Translations under genes and position numbers: made by a program
Notes under the pieces: generated by a model
Databases searched by the model: none
What the model saw: the letters and a program-made list of their open reading frames with translations, nothing else
What the model was told of the DNA's origin: nothing
Origin: Limnothrix sp.
GTDB lineage: Bacteria; Cyanobacteriota; Cyanobacteriia; Cyanobacteriales; MRBY01
Assembly: GCA_044355355.1 (NCBI GenBank)
Contig: JBIKYI010000096.1
Coordinates: 1 to 7,767 of the forward strand
Length of the DNA stretch: 7,767 nt
Direction of reading: 5' to 3'
Part shown: positions 2,472 to 7,767 of the stretch, piece by piece
Position numbering within the stretch: position 1 is the stretch's first letter
How the letters are laid out: each line of letters starts with the position of its first letter

Positions 2472-2670
2472 CCAATAGTATCCAGAGATTGATTCGATAT
2501 TTAACAGATATTGCATAAGTATTAAACAAAGATTTCGTCTTTCTTCATCTAGCCACCCAGGATCAAAAAGTCAGCATACAATGCCAGTAAAGGCATTCTG
2601 ACTGGCAGTTAATAATGTAAAAAGCATCACCTTGGGCGTAGGGTCGGTCTTCCGTCGTCCCCAAGCATCG

Positions 2671-2678
2671 GCGATCGC
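2671..2678. repeat. HIP1 palindrome GCGATCGC
   Basis: exact octamer (GGCGATCGCC), leader of the nucleotidyltransferase gene. Confidence 0.95.
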
Positions 2679-2736
2679 CAATCCCATTAACGCCGCCAGC
2701 AAGCTTGGTTCACAAAGCAAGAGAATTTTTATTTTT

Positions 2737-5277
2737 ATGCGTGCAGTACTGATGGCGGGTGGTTCCGGGACAAGATTACGTCCGCTGACCTGTGATTTGC
2801 CGAAACCCATGGTTCCCGTCTTGAACCGACCGATTGCAGAGCATATTATTAATCTTCTCAAACGCCACCACATCACCGAAGTTATTGCCACCCTCCACTA
2901 TGTCCCCGATGCCATGCGGGATTACTTCCAAGACGGTCGAGATTTTGGCATCAAAATGCACTACGCCATCGAAGAAGAGCAACCCCTCGGCACCGCAGGC
3001 TGCGTCAAAAATGTCGAAGAACTCCTCACCGATACCTTCCTCGTGATCAGTGGCGATAGTATCACCGATTTTGACCTCTCGGCGGCGATCGCCTTCCACC
3101 GCGAAAAACAAGCCAAAGCCACCCTCGTCCTCACCCGCGTGCCCAACCCTGTCGAATTTGGTGTCGTCATCACCGACGAAGATCACCGCATCTGCCGCTT
3201 CCTCGAAAAACCCTCCACCAGCGAAATCTTCTCCGATACCGTCAATACCGGAACCTACATCCTCGAACCAGAAGTCCTGCAATACCTACCCGTTAACGAA
3301 GAAAGCGACTTTTCCAAAGACCTATTCCCCCTCCTCCTTGAGCGGGGCGAACCCATGTTTGGCTACATTGCCGAAGGCTATTGGTGCGATGTCGGTCACC
3401 TCGATGCCTACCGCAAAGCCCAATACGATGCCCTCGCCCGTAAAGTCAAAGTCGAATATGCCTACGAAGAGCGATCGCCCAACATTTGGATCGGCAAAAA
3501 TACCTTTATCGACGACACCGCCGAACTCCACCCCCCACTCCTGATCGGCGATAACTGTCGCATCGGAGCCTACGTCCGCATCGAACCCGGCACCGTCATC
3601 GGCGATAACGTCACCATCGGCGCCTATGCCGACCTCAAACGCCCCATCATCTGGAACGGCGTAACCCTCGGCGAAGAAGCCCACCTCAGAGGCTGCACCA
3701 TCGTCCGGGGCAGCAGAATCGATCGCCGCGCCCACATCCTCGAAGGAGCCGTCATCGGTAGCCTATCCACCGTCGAAGAAGAAGCCCAGATCGGCACAGG
3801 CGTAAGAGTTTGGCCGAACAAACGCGTCGAAGCCGGAGCCATCCTCAACATGAATCTCATCTGGGGAAACACCGCCCAACGCAACCTCTTCGGACAACGT
3901 GGTGTATCCGGACTCGCCAACATCGACATCACCCCAGAATTTGCCGTCAAACTCGGCGCATCCTACGGCGCAACCCTCCGCATCGGTTCCTCAGTAATCG
4001 TCTCCCGCGATCAGCGGAGCGTCTCCCGCATGGTCAGCCGTTCCCTCATTGCCGGCTTAATGTCCGCAGGCATCAACATCCAAAACCTACAAGCCACAGC
4101 CATTCCCATCGCCCGAACCATGGCAACAACTCTTGATGTCGAAGGCGGCATCCATGTCCGTCTGCACCCTGAGCGCCAGGATCACCTCCTCATCGAATTT
4201 ATCGATGCCCAAGGCATTAATATCTCCAAAGCCAAAGAGAAAAAAATTGAAGGCGCTTACTTCAAGGAAGAATTACGCCGCGTCCCCATCAACGAAATTG
4301 GCGATATGTCCGTCCCGGCTCAGGTCGTCGAAGGTTACAGCCAAAGATTTGAGCAATATCTCAACGTTGGGGCGCTCACCAACAGCGGCTCTAAGGTGGT
4401 CATTGATTATGCCTATGCTGTTGCTAATGCGGTTTTACCTCGCCTGTTGTCTAAATTCGATTGTGATGCGATCGTCCTCAATGCCAGTTTGAAACAAACC
4501 TCCCTAGTGGGTCAGGAAAAGGAATTACTGCTGCTGCAACTGGGTCATGTGGTGGAAGCATTACGCGCCAGTATGGGGGTACAGGTGTCAGCCAATGGGG
4601 AACAATTAACCCTGGTTGATGAGACTGGGCAGGCAATCCAAGGGGAACAACTCACGGCTTTAATGGTGAATATTTTGCTCACGGCAAATCCCCGGCGAGC
4701 GGTCGTTGTGCCTGTTTATGCCTCTAGTGCGGTGGAGCAGATTGCCCGTCGCCATGATGGTCAGGTCATTAGAACAAAGGCTAATCCGACGGCATTGATG
4801 GAGGCTTCCCGCAACCATCCAAATGTGGTGTTGGGGGGCAGTGGGGATATGGGTTTCATTTTCCCGGAGCTACATCCTGGGTTTGATGCGATGTTCACGA
4901 TCGCCAAGTTGATCGAAATGCTGACGATTCAGGAGCGATCGCTGGGACAGATTCGTGAGGAGTTACCGACGGTACACCACAAATCTCACACCATGCGCTG
5001 TCCTTGGCGGGTCAAGGGTTCTCTGATGCGTCACCTTGTGGAGATCCATAATAATGACCACATTGAATTGATTGATGGGGTCAAGATTATCGATCCGCTG
5101 TCTGATAATTGGGTGTTGATCCTCCCGGATGCGGGGGAACCGCTCATTCATATTTTCGTGAACAGCAATAGCCATGAATGGGCAGAACGCAATCTTTGGG
5201 AATATCGCCAACGGGTGCAAACGTTTATCTCCCAACATCAAAATGGGACTATTTCGGAGTTTGATGATCGGCTGTAG
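2737..5277 (+). CDS. sugar-1-phosphate nucleotidyltransferase (mannose-1-phosphate guanylyltransferase-like) fused to a left-handed beta-helix and a phosphohexomutase (PGM/PMM)-like C-terminal module
   Basis: 846 codons from ATG 2737. The N-terminus MRAVLMAGGSGTRLRPLT...LPKPMVPV is the nucleotidyltransferase G-loop. Hexapeptide repeats (IGDNCRIGAYVRIEPGTVIGDNVTIGAYADL...) span about 3544-3850. The C-terminal ~450 aa align by eye to alpha-D-phosphohexomutase domains I-IV. The architecture matches my recollection of ~840-aa cyanobacterial proteins annotated as mannose-1-phosphate guanylyltransferase. The ORF-track start at 2632 (TTG) adds 35 residues ahead of the G-loop and is unlikely. Confidence 0.9.
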   Translation: MRAVLMAGGSGTRLRPLTCDLPKPMVPVLNRPIAEHIINLLKRHHITEVIATLHYVPDAMRDYFQDGRDFGIKMHYAIEEEQPLGTAGCVKNVEELLTDTFLVISGDSITDFDLSAAIAFHREKQAKATLVLTRVPNPVEFGVVITDEDHRICRFLEKPSTSEIFSDTVNTGTYILEPEVLQYLPVNEESDFSKDLFPLLLERGEPMFGYIAEGYWCDVGHLDAYRKAQYDALARKVKVEYAYEERSPNIWIGKNTFIDDTAELHPPLLIGDNCRIGAYVRIEPGTVIGDNVTIGAYADLKRPIIWNGVTLGEEAHLRGCTIVRGSRIDRRAHILEGAVIGSLSTVEEEAQIGTGVRVWPNKRVEAGAILNMNLIWGNTAQRNLFGQRGVSGLANIDITPEFAVKLGASYGATLRIGSSVIVSRDQRSVSRMVSRSLIAGLMSAGINIQNLQATAIPIARTMATTLDVEGGIHVRLHPERQDHLLIEFIDAQGINISKAKEKKIEGAYFKEELRRVPINEIGDMSVPAQVVEGYSQRFEQYLNVGALTNSGSKVVIDYAYAVANAVLPRLLSKFDCDAIVLNASLKQTSLVGQEKELLLLQLGHVVEALRASMGVQVSANGEQLTLVDETGQAIQGEQLTALMVNILLTANPRRAVVVPVYASSAVEQIARRHDGQVIRTKANPTALMEASRNHPNVVLGGSGDMGFIFPELHPGFDAMFTIAKLIEMLTIQERSLGQIREELPTVHHKSHTMRCPWRVKGSLMRHLVEIHNNDHIELIDGVKIIDPLSDNWVLILPDAGEPLIHIFVNSNSHEWAERNLWEYRQRVQTFISQHQNGTISEFDDRL
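3085..3092. repeat. HIP1 palindrome GCGATCGC
   Basis: exact octamer inside CDS 2737-5277. Confidence 0.95.
3471..3478. repeat. HIP1 palindrome GCGATCGC
   Basis: exact octamer inside CDS 2737-5277. Confidence 0.95.
4935..4942. repeat. HIP1 palindrome GCGATCGC
   Basis: exact octamer inside CDS 2737-5277. Confidence 0.95.
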
Positions 5278-5355: not shown

Positions 5356-5739
5356 ATGGATCCGATCACTTTGTTAGTTGCCGTCCTCGGAATTTATGGA
5401 TCTGGAATTGTCGCGAAGGCGGGGGAAGATACTTTTGATCACTGTCGCCAGTTGTTAACGGCTAAACTCAAGGGTTCGGCTACGGGTCAGGCTTTGGCGG
5501 CGGGAACGGAGATTGATCCAGAACAGGCGGTGATTGATGTGGAGGCGATCGCCCTTGATCCAGAAGTGCAAGTTCTTACGGAAAAAATCCAGCAATTGAT
5601 CGCCCAAAATGAGGATTTACAACGGCAATTCAATGAGGCGATTCGGCAACAACCGCAGGTAATTCATAAAAATTGGCAGGGGATTAATGCGGAGACGGGC
5701 AGCAATGTCACGGTTCATAATCCGACGTTTAACTTTTGA
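5356..5739 (+). CDS. hypothetical 127-aa protein: N-terminal hydrophobic Gly-rich helix, acidic repeat, coiled-coil-like helix, N/Q/G/T-rich tail (candidate effector/partner of the downstream NLR-like NTPase)
   Basis: ATG 5356 is the first possible start, since an in-frame TGA lies at 5344. Visible segments are ITLLVAVLGIYGSGIVA (aa 4-20), IDPEQAVIDVEAIA/LDPEVQVLTEKIQQ (a 14-aa repeat), EKIQQLIAQNEDLQRQFNEAIRQQ, and the tail NWQGINAETGSNVTVHNPTFNF. G-rich codon style matches the 5' part of the downstream gene. I recognise no family. Confidence 0.65.
   Translation: MDPITLLVAVLGIYGSGIVAKAGEDTFDHCRQLLTAKLKGSATGQALAAGTEIDPEQAVIDVEAIALDPEVQVLTEKIQQLIAQNEDLQRQFNEAIRQQPQVIHKNWQGINAETGSNVTVHNPTFNF
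5545..5552. repeat. HIP1 palindrome GCGATCGC
   Basis: exact octamer inside the 127-codon ORF; it is the last HIP1 in the window. Confidence 0.95.
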
Positions 5740-5790
5740 CTACAGTCGTCTGAATCGGTAGCGCGGACAAAGTTAGAGGCTCCGAATAAT

Positions 5791-7767
5791 TTGCGACAAC
5801 GGACGGTTCCCTATTTCGTCGGGCGGGAAGAGGAACTTAAAAGTTTGCATGGTTTCCTGTCGGATGGGGAATCGGTGGCAATTTCGGCGGTGTCGGGCAT
5901 GGGTGGCATCGGCAAATCTGAACTGGCGTTGCAATATATCTATCGTTCGCAAGCAGCTTATCCAGATGGGATTCTTTGGCTGGATGCGACATCGGCAACT
6001 TTTGCGGAGGAGATTATCGGGTTTGCGGTGGGGACATTAAAGCTGTCTGTACCGGAGGATTTACCGCCAGTGCAAAAGGTGAGGAGCGTTTGGGCGCATT
6101 GGCTGGGGACGGATCCGGTGTTGGTGGTGGTGGACAATATCAATCAGCCAGAGGATTTTACGCGGGTACAGGAATTTTTGCCCTACGGTTATCAACGGTT
6201 TCGGGTGTTGGTGACGAGTCGGGTCAAGTTGGCTGGATTGCGGGAATTGCCGTTGGATTTGTTGCCGCTAAAACAGGCGGTTAAATTGTTAGCACGATTA
6301 GCAAAGGCATCTGAGCGCAAAAATTGGGATCGGAAAGCTGCAAAAAATCTTTGTAAACGGTTGGGGCGGTTGCCGTTGGCGGTGGCGTTGGTGGGGAGCT
6401 ATCTGGGGCTAGATCTGAATTTGGGTTTGGCTGAAATGACGGCATTGCTAGAGAAAAAAGGGCTGGATGCGCGGTGTTTGGACAAGCCTGATCCGACGGT
6501 GGCAAAGCGGGGAGTAAAAGCAGCGTTTGATTTGTCGTGGGAGCATCTGACGGCGGAAACGCAACGGTTGGCTTGTGTGCTGGCGATGTTTGCCCGTGCG
6601 CCTATTGAGTGGCGATTGGTGGAAAATACGTTTATTTCGACGGATTCGGAGGAAGCCCCACAATTTGACCGCTTTGATTTGACGGATTGGCGGCAGGAGT
6701 TGCTGCGTTATTCGTTGTTACAGGGGGTGGAATTAGCGGAACAGGGGCGATCTGGTTATCTGTTGCATCCGTTGATCTGGGAATATCTGCGCCAGAAAAT
6801 ACCGACAGTGCTGGATGAGCAAATACGGCGATCGATGGTGAAGGCGATCATTACAGAAGCAGAAACTATTGAATACAACGCGCCCCTTGCGGACTACGAA
6901 AAAGTGCGTCTCTCTATTCCACACATAACCGAGTTAGCGGAAGAGTGGACAGAATTATTGAATCAAGATGATGTGATTACGCCTTCTACAAGAATTGCCT
7001 TTTATTATCTTTGCCGGTTATTTGACATTGAAGGAAGCGAATATTGGTTTCAGAAGACTATCGCTTTAGCAAAAAAACTATTACCCAAAAACCATATGGA
7101 TATTGTTGGAGCACTCAATAATTTAGCTGAGTTCTATAGTAAGCAAGGAAGATATCAAAGAGCTTTATCTATATATTCAGAATGCTTTGAATTTAAGAAT
7201 TTAAATAAAAAACCTGCTTTGCTTGCTATCTTACAGAATAACCAAGCATTAGTTCATGTAGGACTTGGGGAGTTTTCTAAAGCTGAAGTCTTGTACAGGA
7301 AAGCTATGGAGATTGAGCGAAAACATTTATCTGAAGACGATCCAAGTCTTGCGAATAGCTTAATCAATTTGGCTGATTTACTGTCTAAGCATTTAGAACA
7401 AACTATTGAAGCAGAGTCTTTATACTCAGAAGCACTAGAAATAGCCCGTAAGTCATTACCTAAAAATCATCCAAGTCTTGCAAATATTATTTTTAAAGTT
7501 GCAGAATTTTATGAATCTAAAGGAGACTTTTTAATTGCAGAAACTCATTTCTTAGAAGCTATAGTGATTGCACGTGAATCATTTTCTAGGAATCATCCGA
7601 ATTTTGCTGCGATGCTTAATAATGTGGCAATGATGTATATCAAGCTAAACAAAATATCGAAAGCTAAGCCCTTACTACAGGAATCGCTTCGTATTATTCG
7701 ACTACGGTATGGCGATGGACATCATTTGACTCTAACTATTCTTGAAAATTACGAGGCAATTCTCTAA
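5791..7767 (+). CDS. NB-ARC (AP-ATPase clade STAND NTPase) protein with C-terminal TPR array; NLR-like / Avs-like
   Basis: 658 codons from TTG 5791, with GAGG at 5776-5779. NB-ARC motifs read from the translation are FVGREEEL, Walker A GMGGIGKS (5896-5919), Walker B VLVVVD (6118-6135), RVLVTSR, GLPLA-type GRLPLAV (6364-6384) and MHD-like LHPLIWEY (6763-6786). From about 7050 there are about 5 kinesin-light-chain-type TPR units (e.g. ALNNLAEFYSKQGRYQRALSIY, PSLANSLINLADLL, PSLANIIFKVAEFYESKGDF, AAMLNNVAMMYIKLNKISKA). The first in-frame ATG (5899) lies inside the P-loop, so a non-ATG start or read-through is required. The stop codon is the last triplet of the window. Confidence 0.9.
   Translation: MRQRTVPYFVGREEELKSLHGFLSDGESVAISAVSGMGGIGKSELALQYIYRSQAAYPDGILWLDATSATFAEEIIGFAVGTLKLSVPEDLPPVQKVRSVWAHWLGTDPVLVVVDNINQPEDFTRVQEFLPYGYQRFRVLVTSRVKLAGLRELPLDLLPLKQAVKLLARLAKASERKNWDRKAAKNLCKRLGRLPLAVALVGSYLGLDLNLGLAEMTALLEKKGLDARCLDKPDPTVAKRGVKAAFDLSWEHLTAETQRLACVLAMFARAPIEWRLVENTFISTDSEEAPQFDRFDLTDWRQELLRYSLLQGVELAEQGRSGYLLHPLIWEYLRQKIPTVLDEQIRRSMVKAIITEAETIEYNAPLADYEKVRLSIPHITELAEEWTELLNQDDVITPSTRIAFYYLCRLFDIEGSEYWFQKTIALAKKLLPKNHMDIVGALNNLAEFYSKQGRYQRALSIYSECFEFKNLNKKPALLAILQNNQALVHVGLGEFSKAEVLYRKAMEIERKHLSEDDPSLANSLINLADLLSKHLEQTIEAESLYSEALEIARKSLPKNHPSLANIIFKVAEFYESKGDFLIAETHFLEAIVIARESFSRNHPNFAAMLNNVAMMYIKLNKISKAKPLLQESLRIIRLRYGDGHHLTLTILENYEAIL

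Follow-up and report, generated by a model that had tools for sequence, protein, structure and literature searches.

Bell-domain proteins, which occur in Cyanobacteria and Actinobacteria, are proteins of ~120-140 amino acids (aa) with an N-terminal hydrophobic helix that carries an acidic residue at position 2 or 3 and a C-terminal BASS motif of ~25 aa, and they adjoin a gene encoding NB-ARC or NACHT together with TPR or WD repeats (Dyrka et al., 2020, bioRxiv 10.1101/2020.01.06.895854). Recurrence of the motif at the N-terminus of the NLR is the published hallmark of these amyloid signalling pairs (bioRxiv 10.1101/2020.01.06.895854). We describe here a locus related to the BASS7 family of such pairs, located in a 7,767-nucleotide (nt) stretch of DNA from Limnothrix sp. 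(contig JBIKYI010000096.1; this whole stretch is hereafter termed the window), in which a small open reading frame (ORF) and the downstream ORF of an NB-ARC-TPR protein (an NLR-like STAND NTPase) lie in one frame, separated by a UGA codon and a hairpin-containing linker. The locus resembles the published pairs in its ~130-aa protein with an N-terminal helix and a ~100-aa helical domain, in the ~25-aa N/Q/G-rich C-terminal motif, which matches BASS7, in the collinear NB-ARC-TPR gene next to it and in its cyanobacterial host. It differs from them in that the window NLR has no second copy of the motif and lies in frame behind a conserved UGA and hairpin. As the paired-motif table of Dyrka et al. 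(2020) requires a motif at the N-terminus of the NLR, loci with the in-frame UGA fall outside it. Stop codons and read-through are not mentioned in that work, and our literature searches did not find a cassette made of an in-frame UGA and a hairpin.

An experimental precedent is the Bab/Agp pair of E. coli (BASS11), which acts in abortive infection via amyloid templating and membrane damage and provides phage defence (bioRxiv 10.1101/2024.11.07.622273). Here too a small Bell-related executioner ("Babybell"), with a conserved N-terminal helix and a C-terminal amyloid motif, lies beside a TPR-containing sensor. However, Agp has the make-up TPR-GreA/B-C-PIN and is not a STAND NTPase, it carries a BASS11 motif of its own, and the two genes are translated separately. 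In the HET-S/NWD2 system of Podospora anserina, the N-terminal amyloid motif of an NLR templates the C-terminal prion-forming domain of the adjacent helical, pore-forming HeLo protein (PMC4344463); this system differs from the window in being fungal, in using HeLo instead of Bell and a NACHT-WD NLR, and in consisting of separate genes, each with its own motif. The predicted 803-aa product of the window would carry a Bell-type module on a STAND NTPase, as do the "all-in-one" Bell-NLRs and the Avs2-type NLRs with a MEPIS region, but here the fusion would be a minor translational isoform that keeps BASS7, and there is no Avs match in PADLOC.

Rare fusion proteins made by reading through a stop codon are known from viruses. 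In phage Qbeta, with its coat/A1 pair, A1 arises by UGA read-through. In the gag-pol gene of murine leukaemia virus (MuLV), a UAG is followed by an 8-nt spacer and a pseudoknot (PMC4178896), so that, as in the window, structured RNA begins ~8 nt past the leaky stop. The UGA-C signals with 3' structures of alphaviruses and other viruses (PMC13517186) likewise combine a leaky stop with a rare, C-terminally extended fusion. Common to the viral cases and to the arrangement proposed here is an abundant N-terminal product opposed to a rare fusion, at a ratio set by translation. The differences are that the present family consists of bacterial chromosomal or plasmid genes, that its stem has 5 bp, and that its mechanism is predicted. 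To judge by its sequence, the module appears to be of a known kind, and the cassette of in-frame UGA and hairpin is what is new.

Two proteins encoded in one reading frame

The layout of the locus and of its two ORFs is as follows.

5356-7767, + strand: predicted read-through frame, 127 + 1 (UGA) + 17 + 658 = 803 residues, ~90.5 kDa; predicted domain order Bell, BASS7, linker, NB-ARC, TPR
5356-5739, + strand: small ORF, 127 aa, 13.8 kDa, Bell-like helical domain with C-terminal BASS7 motif, stop TGA
5356-5415, + strand: N-terminal hydrophobic helix MDPITLLVAVLGIYGSGIVA, acidic residue at position 2, "MEPIS"-type motif (MDPIT)
5662-5736, + strand: BASS7-type amyloid signalling motif, residues 103-127, IHKNWQGINAETGSNVTVHNPTFNF, placed by local alignment to BASS7 strings
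5737-5739, + strand: in-frame UGA, proposed read-through site; the next base, 5740, is C
5740-5790, + strand: linker of 17 codons in frame, LQSSESVARTKLEAPNN, the most conserved nucleotide stretch of the locus
5791-7767, + strand: NB-ARC-TPR (NLR-like STAND) ORF, 658 aa as called from TTG 5791, with GAGG at 5776-5779
5827-6405, + strand: NB-ARC domain (PF00931, residues 13-205, E 5e-11, above the gathering score) with Walker A GMGGIGKS and Walker B VLVVVD
7045-7725, + strand: TPR sensor array, about residues 419-645 (Pfam TPR_12, TPR_10, TPR_8; PADLOC TPR at residues 419-638)

An earlier sequence-only reading of the window had described a 127-aa ORF that ends 51 nt upstream of a co-directional 658-aa ORF, and the coordinates confirm this. 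The shared frame escaped that reading, which is partly supported as a whole: both ORFs are on the same strand and in the same frame, and a single TGA (5737-5739) and 17 sense codons separate them. Among the five ORFs of the window, the small one is the only one that ends in TGA. A reassigned genetic code was ruled out, since TAG or TAA closes the other window ORFs and TGA does not occur inside the long ones. From the comparisons presented below, we consider it quite probable that the locus is a regulated-cell-death module of a Bell/BASS7 and an NB-ARC-TPR protein built as one UGA read-through unit; its role is probably anti-phage, by analogy with the systems described above.

The translation of the small ORF includes ITLLVAVLGIYGSGIVA, the sequences EIDPE and LDPE and an N/Q/G/T-rich tail, the end of which (NWQGINAETGSNVTVHNPTFNF) falls within the BASS7 match. 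When the tail was locally aligned with BASS7 strings from Table S2 of Dyrka et al. (2020), scores of 75 and 74 were obtained, which none of 2000 shuffles reached; the strings matched were INENWQGINAKGGINVIKDNTFNF from the NLR side of Calothrix PCC 6303 and PHIVNENWQGINFKNANPTISGNTFNF from the Bell side of C. elsteri. The N-terminus is of the type named "MEPIS" by Ibarlosa et al. (2024, bioRxiv 10.1101/2024.11.07.622273), known for Bell, Hell and Babybell domains and for Avs2. Nearly all members of the family alignment (A4) begin with M-[ED]-P-[ILV]-[ST] followed by the hydrophobic helix, and beyond this helix they share a core with conserved K-x-G-E and Q-A-V-I-D-V-E. An AlphaFold model made from a 31-sequence alignment (pLDDT 68) has helices at residues 3-16, 21-37, 42-49, 55-65, 69-84 and 86-98, the tail being modelled as a beta hairpin at low confidence. 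The sequence-only reading had recognised no named family in the small protein and had suggested an undescribed effector type. Since the tail matches BASS7 and the N-terminus is of the MEPIS type, the novelty has to be given up: by these sequence features, namely the MEPIS-type helix, the ~100-aa helical domain and the BASS7 tail, the small protein is an effector of a described kind, Bell-BASS7. The comparison with Bell and HeLo proteins made in the same reading was the right one, and a small protein with a membrane-prone N-terminal helix as the likely output of an NLR-type conflict or cell-death module is likewise supported.

The small protein had no family match in Pfam, NCBIfam or PADLOC. 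Its close homologues (n=9, 121-149 aa) are all stand-alone proteins and all cyanobacterial. A profile search of 1.8 billion representatives returned 38 relatives, all of ~55-170 aa save three weak long matches, and relatives were also found in Nodularia, Pseudanabaena, Lyngbya and Cylindrospermum. Tails of the BASS3 type, such as Table S2 lists for Bell proteins, occur on other proteins of this N-domain family. With the better model as query, Foldseek found nothing in the Protein Data Bank (PDB) with E below 0.8, and the Bab structure (PDB 9H9V) was not among the matches; a profile search of PDB sequences returned coiled-coil noise only. A tblastn search of plasmids with the window protein gave no match, while the more distant query P0083 did retrieve plasmid relatives. 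Two scans of JGI metagenomes, one by peptide patterns and one by the DNA pattern of the cassette, gave no match.

Within the same family, a His-rich tail motif, QGYxFN(D/E)KVxAQxIGGxHxHHH, is carried by P0005-P0008, P0011, P0013, P0014, P0020 and P0022 and in loci L012 and L014, where it is paired between the small protein and the NLR. Its strings GYQF, IGGNH and IGGIH are absent from Table S2 of Dyrka et al. (2020), and the motif may represent an unclassified BASS family.

The 658-aa translation contains all the motifs that had been quoted for it, FVGREEEL (8 residues past the start), GMGGIGKS, VLVVVD, RVLVTSR, GRLPLAV and LHPLIWEY. Profile searches found NB-ARC, TPR_12 (E 5.6e-39) and TPR_10 (E 1.6e-31) on it. 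FxSxx_TPR was the best NCBIfam model for the NLR, under its cut-off. In PADLOC the NLR gave weak TPR matches alone (E 1.6e-5 and 6.9e-5) and no Avs model, so the comparison with Avs systems finds no backing there. Over its full length the NLR is 46% identical to the partner genes in L001 and L004. The BASS7 tail has no similarity to the N-terminus of the window NLR or to the linker (1468/2000 and 1883/2000 shuffles, respectively, scored equally). The NLR-side copy of the motif is thus missing in the window, and only the read-through product would have it. The sequence-only reading had called the NLR effector-less; as it shares the frame of the effector, past a stop of the leaky type and a hairpin that are both conserved, this appearance is most likely an effect of ORF calling, and the N-terminal module of the NLR is probably the Bell-BASS7 protein itself.

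Among the related loci that we examined, only two lack a co-directional NB-ARC/STAND or TPR gene behind the small gene; homologues are therefore not found mostly away from STAND genes, an outcome that the earlier reading had named as speaking against it. These loci were reached via protein homologues or from a genome/plasmid collection, and they include P0001, a 97%-identical relative of the window that is known from its gene table alone. The partner is an NB-ARC-TPR protein in [Leptolyngbya] sp. PCC 7376 (L001; Lepto7376_2624 locus), RI_101 (L004), L006, L012, L014, L018-L023 and the Nostoc plasmids L025 and L027, a different STAND protein in L029 and a TPR-only protein in the L008 group. The two exceptions are L026, with a transmembrane protein encoded downstream, and L028, a decayed copy of L026. 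The pairing is not due to chance.

The UGA codon, its hairpin and two architectures

Related loci fall into two types. NLR-side motifs are missing from 14 lineages (the window, L016, L001, L018, L019, L004, the L008 group, L020-L022, L025-L027 and L029), the small proteins of which are 23-77% identical to that of the window; four intact loci on finished Nostocales plasmids are among them. All 14 have TGA as the stop of the small ORF and, without a change of frame, an open ORF downstream; C is the +4 base in 13 of them. Four different modules lie in frame behind the cassette: NB-ARC-TPR, another STAND, a transmembrane protein and a 97-aa domain. In the loci of the second type (L006, L012, L014 and L023), the NLR has its own ATG and a copy of the tail motif of its partner. 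As an example, the NLR of L012 begins with MTDKDQSQRYEFNDKVEAQFIGGIHYHG, its partner having the tail NKDNSQEYQFNDKVKAQSIGGIHYHD. The score of this recurrence was reached by 0/2000 shuffles in L006, L012 and L014 and by 4/2000 in L023. Small ORFs of this type stop at TAG, TAA or a TGA that overlaps the ATG of the NLR, and none of the four is in frame with it. Frame and hairpin are thus found together in 14/14 loci without the NLR-side motif, as opposed to 0/4 loci with it. Read-through would place BASS7 just N-terminal of NB-ARC, as it is in the duplicated-motif relatives, and would explain this dichotomy.

Two RNA features lie in the linker.

5748-5768, + strand: RNA hairpin starting exactly 8 nt past the UGA, with arms GUCUG (5748-5752) and CGGAC (5764-5768) and an 11-nt loop (5753-5763)
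5769-5784, + strand: A-rich tract AAAGUUAGAG, then GCUCCG (5779-5784), complementary to the hairpin loop

A 5-bp stem is present exactly 8 nt past the TGA in 14/14 lineages and encloses a purine-rich loop of 8 or 11 nt. In the alignment of these lineages (A6), all 70 pair cells form standard pairs, and three of the five stem pairs show compensatory changes (UA/CG/AU/GC; CG/UG/GC/UA; GC/CG). None of 500 shuffles reached the covariation score of the hairpin, and controls with slid partners were 17-45% paired. A covariance model (R1) was built on the first ten lineages and run on five plasmid loci outside its training set; its best match fell exactly on the stop of the small ORF in all five (E between 4e-12 and 0.012). 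The model gave no significant match in the four loci with a duplicated motif.

The GGG-rich loop is complementary to a C-run located 9-12 nt past the stem in all 14 lineages. The duplex of loop and downstream sequence amounts to -10.0 kcal/mol in the window, with 6/1000 shuffles as good, and summed over the 14 lineages to -102 vs -54 kcal/mol for the shuffles, none of 1000 of which reached it. We hypothesize that this pairing might form the second stem of an H-type pseudoknot; no covariation was seen in this putative stem across the 14 related lineages. An outer stem proposed by RNAalifold, pairing UUUUGACU with the downstream AGUUAAAG, was dropped, as breaks are present in it and compensatory changes are not.

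No DNA of the locus is more conserved than the TGA with the 51 nt after it, whichever pair is compared (identity 0.70-0.96 vs 0.43-0.86 in the flanking coding sequence). Length differences in this region are whole codons: loops have 11 or 8 nt, and F[VI]GR follows the stop at a distance of 24, 25 or 27 codons. In its distal part (K-L-x-x-P-N-N-V-P-S-P), the linker has homology to a stretch of the L012 and L014 NLRs that is certainly translated. No terminator was found between the small ORF and the NLR ORF. A prfB-like +1 frameshift at UUU-UGA-C was ruled out: the +1 frame meets UAG after 7 codons and, as further evidence against it, the codon preceding the UGA is not conserved.

No initiation codon of the NLR is conserved among the in-frame lineages. 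Codon 18 is TTG in the window and in L016 and GTG in L001, while in L018, L019 and L004 it is GTT, GTA and TTA; other candidates are a GTG at codon 8 in L018 and L019 and a GTG directly past the stop in L022. Six lineages (L004, L020, L021, L025, L027 and L029) have no ATG, GTG or TTG before the conserved F[VI]GR motif of NB-ARC or the P-loop, which in L029 leaves 53 codons up to the P-loop free of them; in a seventh, L026, the first 60 codons of the transmembrane ORF have none. For want of a start codon before the NB-ARC motif, annotations (PGAP or submitter) place the NLR start inside or after it: public or gene-caller starts lie inside or past the NB-ARC N-terminal motif in at least L004, L020, L021, L025 and L027 and past the P-loop in L029. 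In the last of these, the GenBank start at 2464 leaves the annotated protein without Walker A. Initiation at the codon directly past the stop, which is CTG in many lineages, was ruled out as a general route, this codon being CTA in the window, L016, L025, L026 and L027 and CCG in the L008 group.

Proposed mechanism and alternative explanations

UGA is the leakiest stop codon, and the +4 base modulates termination. UGA-C is reportedly the weakest termination tetranucleotide in E. coli, as Poole and co-workers are said to have found in 1995. We propose that most ribosomes would stop at the UGA (5737-5739) and yield an abundant, free 13.8-kDa Bell-BASS7 effector, which would be inactive with its hydrophobic helix 1 packed in the helical bundle. 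A minority would decode the UGA with a near-cognate tRNA, presumably tRNA-Trp, favoured by UGA-C as a weak context and by the hairpin, or perhaps pseudoknot, 8 nt downstream, which would sit at the mRNA entry channel while the UGA is in the A site. Having crossed the 17-codon linker, these ribosomes would make a rare 803-aa fusion of ~90.5 kDa with BASS7 just N-terminal of NB-ARC. Upon sensing of a trigger by the TPR array, oligomerisation of NB-ARC would cluster the BASS7 segments and nucleate the amyloid fold, which would in turn template the BASS7 tails of the free effector, so that Bell helix 1 would be released and attack the membrane. The activation steps beyond read-through are modelled on HET-S/NWD2, the Bell/BASS pairs and Bab/Agp. 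What we infer, from sequence comparison and from these analogies, is read-through with its efficiency, templating by amyloid, attack on the membrane and a role in defence. Taking the lineages together, it is also reasonably probable that a family of cyanobacterial immune loci uses a recoding cassette, consisting of UGA-C, an 8-nt spacer and a covarying hairpin or pseudoknot, and would make the NLR only as a rare read-through extension. That read-through efficiency might shift during infection, which would make sensor synthesis infection-responsive, is an idea to which we give a small chance at best.

Several points weigh against this proposal. We know of no documented case of stop-codon read-through stimulated by RNA structure in bacterial cellular genes, so that its prior is low, and the evidence for read-through is comparative sequence throughout. 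The hairpin is short and weak (-3.9 kcal/mol in the window, -2.8 to -9.4 kcal/mol across lineages), and the folding energy of the junction is unremarkable against shuffles (single-sequence z-scores -0.9 to +1.9). The stem was derived from some of the same sequences on which it was scored, which the test of R1 on independent loci offsets in part, and the lineages share ancestry, their counts not being independent events. Substitutions in the linker (~10, 8 and 9 at codon positions 1, 2 and 3) give no clean coding signature, a count that is uninformative here, as RNA constraint would confound such a signature. The Bell homology stands on motifs and literature tables, fold and sequence searches of PDB having given nothing significant. 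Finally, the window has a usable start of its own at TTG 5791, with GAGG 12 nt upstream, from which a motif-less NLR could be made in addition to the fusion.

This last point leads to the alternative that carries most weight, above all for the window itself, although we consider it unlikely: two ordinary, separately translated genes, with the NLR starting at TTG 5791 and devoid of a BASS motif. The NLR would then act on Bell-BASS7 in some other way, or a BASS7-bearing NLR encoded elsewhere in the genome would template it; the hairpin would be an element of mRNA stability, processing or translational coupling, and the shared frame an inherited accident. The TTG with its GAGG (5776-5779) is a plausible initiation site, GTG starts are available in L001 (at the same codon), in L018 and L019 (at codon 8) and in L022 (past the stop), and short distances with coupled translation are common in Bell/NLR pairs (bioRxiv 10.1101/2020.01.06.895854); the weakness of the hairpin also fits. 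However, no start position is conserved, and seven lineages have no canonical start before the NB-ARC N-terminal motif or the P-loop. What is conserved is the frame, the whole-codon spacing of insertions and deletions and the 8-nt distance of the hairpin to the stop, not to any start, and this ahead of four downstream modules. Moreover, the hairpin and the in-frame UGA are restricted to loci whose NLR carries no motif copy (14 vs 0/4 loci), and, were the genes separate, there would be nothing in cis to template the strongly conserved BASS7 tail.

The remaining explanations we regard as far less probable. The bacterial SECIS hairpin lies in coding sequence just downstream of an in-frame UGA, and the geometry of the cassette is superficially similar to it, which would make the UGA a selenocysteine codon. 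This is very improbable: Rfam searched with the hairpin region gave no family match, SECIS families included, at E up to 10; no relative examined has Cys or another sense codon at the UGA position; the site lies in a variable linker past non-conserved residues, with no redox motif; and the stem has 5 bp only and begins 8 nt past the UGA. To our knowledge, machinery for decoding selenocysteine is not known in cyanobacteria. Even less credit is due to a decayed "all-in-one" Bell-NLR split by a nonsense mutation, or to an error of sequencing or assembly, both of which are effectively refuted by the conservation. Fusions of Bell domains to NLRs do exist, and a single stop separates the two parts, but the same TGA is found in the same place in 14 lineages, in independent assemblies and on four finished plasmids, and both flanking ORFs are intact and conserved; the truly decayed L028 looks different, with a poly-A run breaking its frame. 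The chance that the small protein is an unrelated secreted or membrane protein with a signal peptide, merely located beside an NLR, is close to negligible. Its hydrophobic N-terminal segment would suit a signal peptide, but residue 2 is acidic and a basic n-region is lacking, its linkage to STAND/TPR genes is constant, and in four relatives the tail motif is duplicated on the NLR. The sequence-only reading had set out the signal peptide as an alternative to its own view, and it is disfavoured on these grounds. We return to read-through of the UGA as the preferred explanation.

Related loci, neighbouring genes and meaning of the finding

Several related loci have particular arrangements. In the L008 group (L008 1183-3481; also L009, L010, L013 and L015), TGA-CCG and the hairpin are followed by an in-frame 97-codon ORF without NB-ARC; the TPR-only protein (494-537 aa) starts in another frame, overlapping the end of this ORF. 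On a plasmid of Microchaete diplosiphon NIES-3275 (L026 3501-4601), the in-frame ORF has 220 codons and a predicted transmembrane helix, encodes no NLR and is annotated in part as "serine/threonine protein kinase"; the poly-A run that breaks the frame of its decayed copy (L028) lies on a Nostoc sphaeroides plasmid. On a plasmid of Nostocales cyanobacterium HT-58-2 (L029 1717-4728), the cassette precedes, in frame, a different STAND NTPase with repeats of ~33 aa each of the form SDALAAAKQIQDE..R..ALSALADKLP. In the duplicated-motif type, a nucleotidyltransferase/HepT (MNT-HEPN) toxin-antitoxin pair lies between the Bell gene and the NLR in L023 (3998-4664) and L024 (863-1529). In L014 (~3334-3900), the same interval contains part of the Bell 3' end in a second copy, along with short repeats that may be MITE-like, which suggests that the junction was recently rearranged. 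The genome of PCC 7376 also carries a classical two-gene BASS4 pair (AFY38362.1/AFY38363.1; Table S2 of Dyrka et al., 2020); both architectures thus coexist in one genome.

The upstream genes of the window are ordinary, encoding by Pfam a bifunctional mannose-1-phosphate guanylyltransferase/phosphomannomutase, a bicupin and a Uma2 protein. For the first of these (2632-5277), the mechanical ORF has 881 aa from TTG 2632; most members of its cluster are shorter (822-846 aa), and its true start is probably at 2737 or later. The Uma2-family putative endonuclease gene (296-925, - strand) has a counterpart directly downstream of the homologous NLR in PCC 7376 (L001 10539-11177, - strand), which may be a coincidence, Uma2 being abundant in cyanobacteria. 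Within the NLR ORF, from the NB-ARC/winged-helix part to the TPR array, G+C drops from ~0.51 to 0.33-0.38 (6750-7767); a weaker form of this trend is seen in the homologues of L001, L004, L021 and L022, and the amino-acid composition of the TPRs or turnover of the repeats may lie behind it. In the NB-ARC coding part (5750-6750) the GC skew has strongly positive values (+0.31 to +0.38), and in the sugar-nucleotide gene (2750-4250), which lies on the same strand, strongly negative ones (about -0.22 to -0.25).

If the proposed read-through is true, this would be the first programmed stop-codon read-through associated with RNA structure in bacterial cellular genes, and a recoding class new to bacteria, apart from phages and selenoproteins, the compact signal of which lends itself to searches. 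One cistron would give both components at a sensor-to-effector ratio fixed by translation, and the amyloid motif of the NLR side would be supplied without a second copy. It would be a simple answer to the dosage problem of amyloid-templated death switches, which require nucleators in small and effectors in large number. Loci in which NLR starts are annotated too far downstream could be flagged by a covariance model of the R1 kind, and read-through would explain the expression, and the coupling to an executioner, of many "effector-less" cyanobacterial NLRs with truncated or mis-started annotations.

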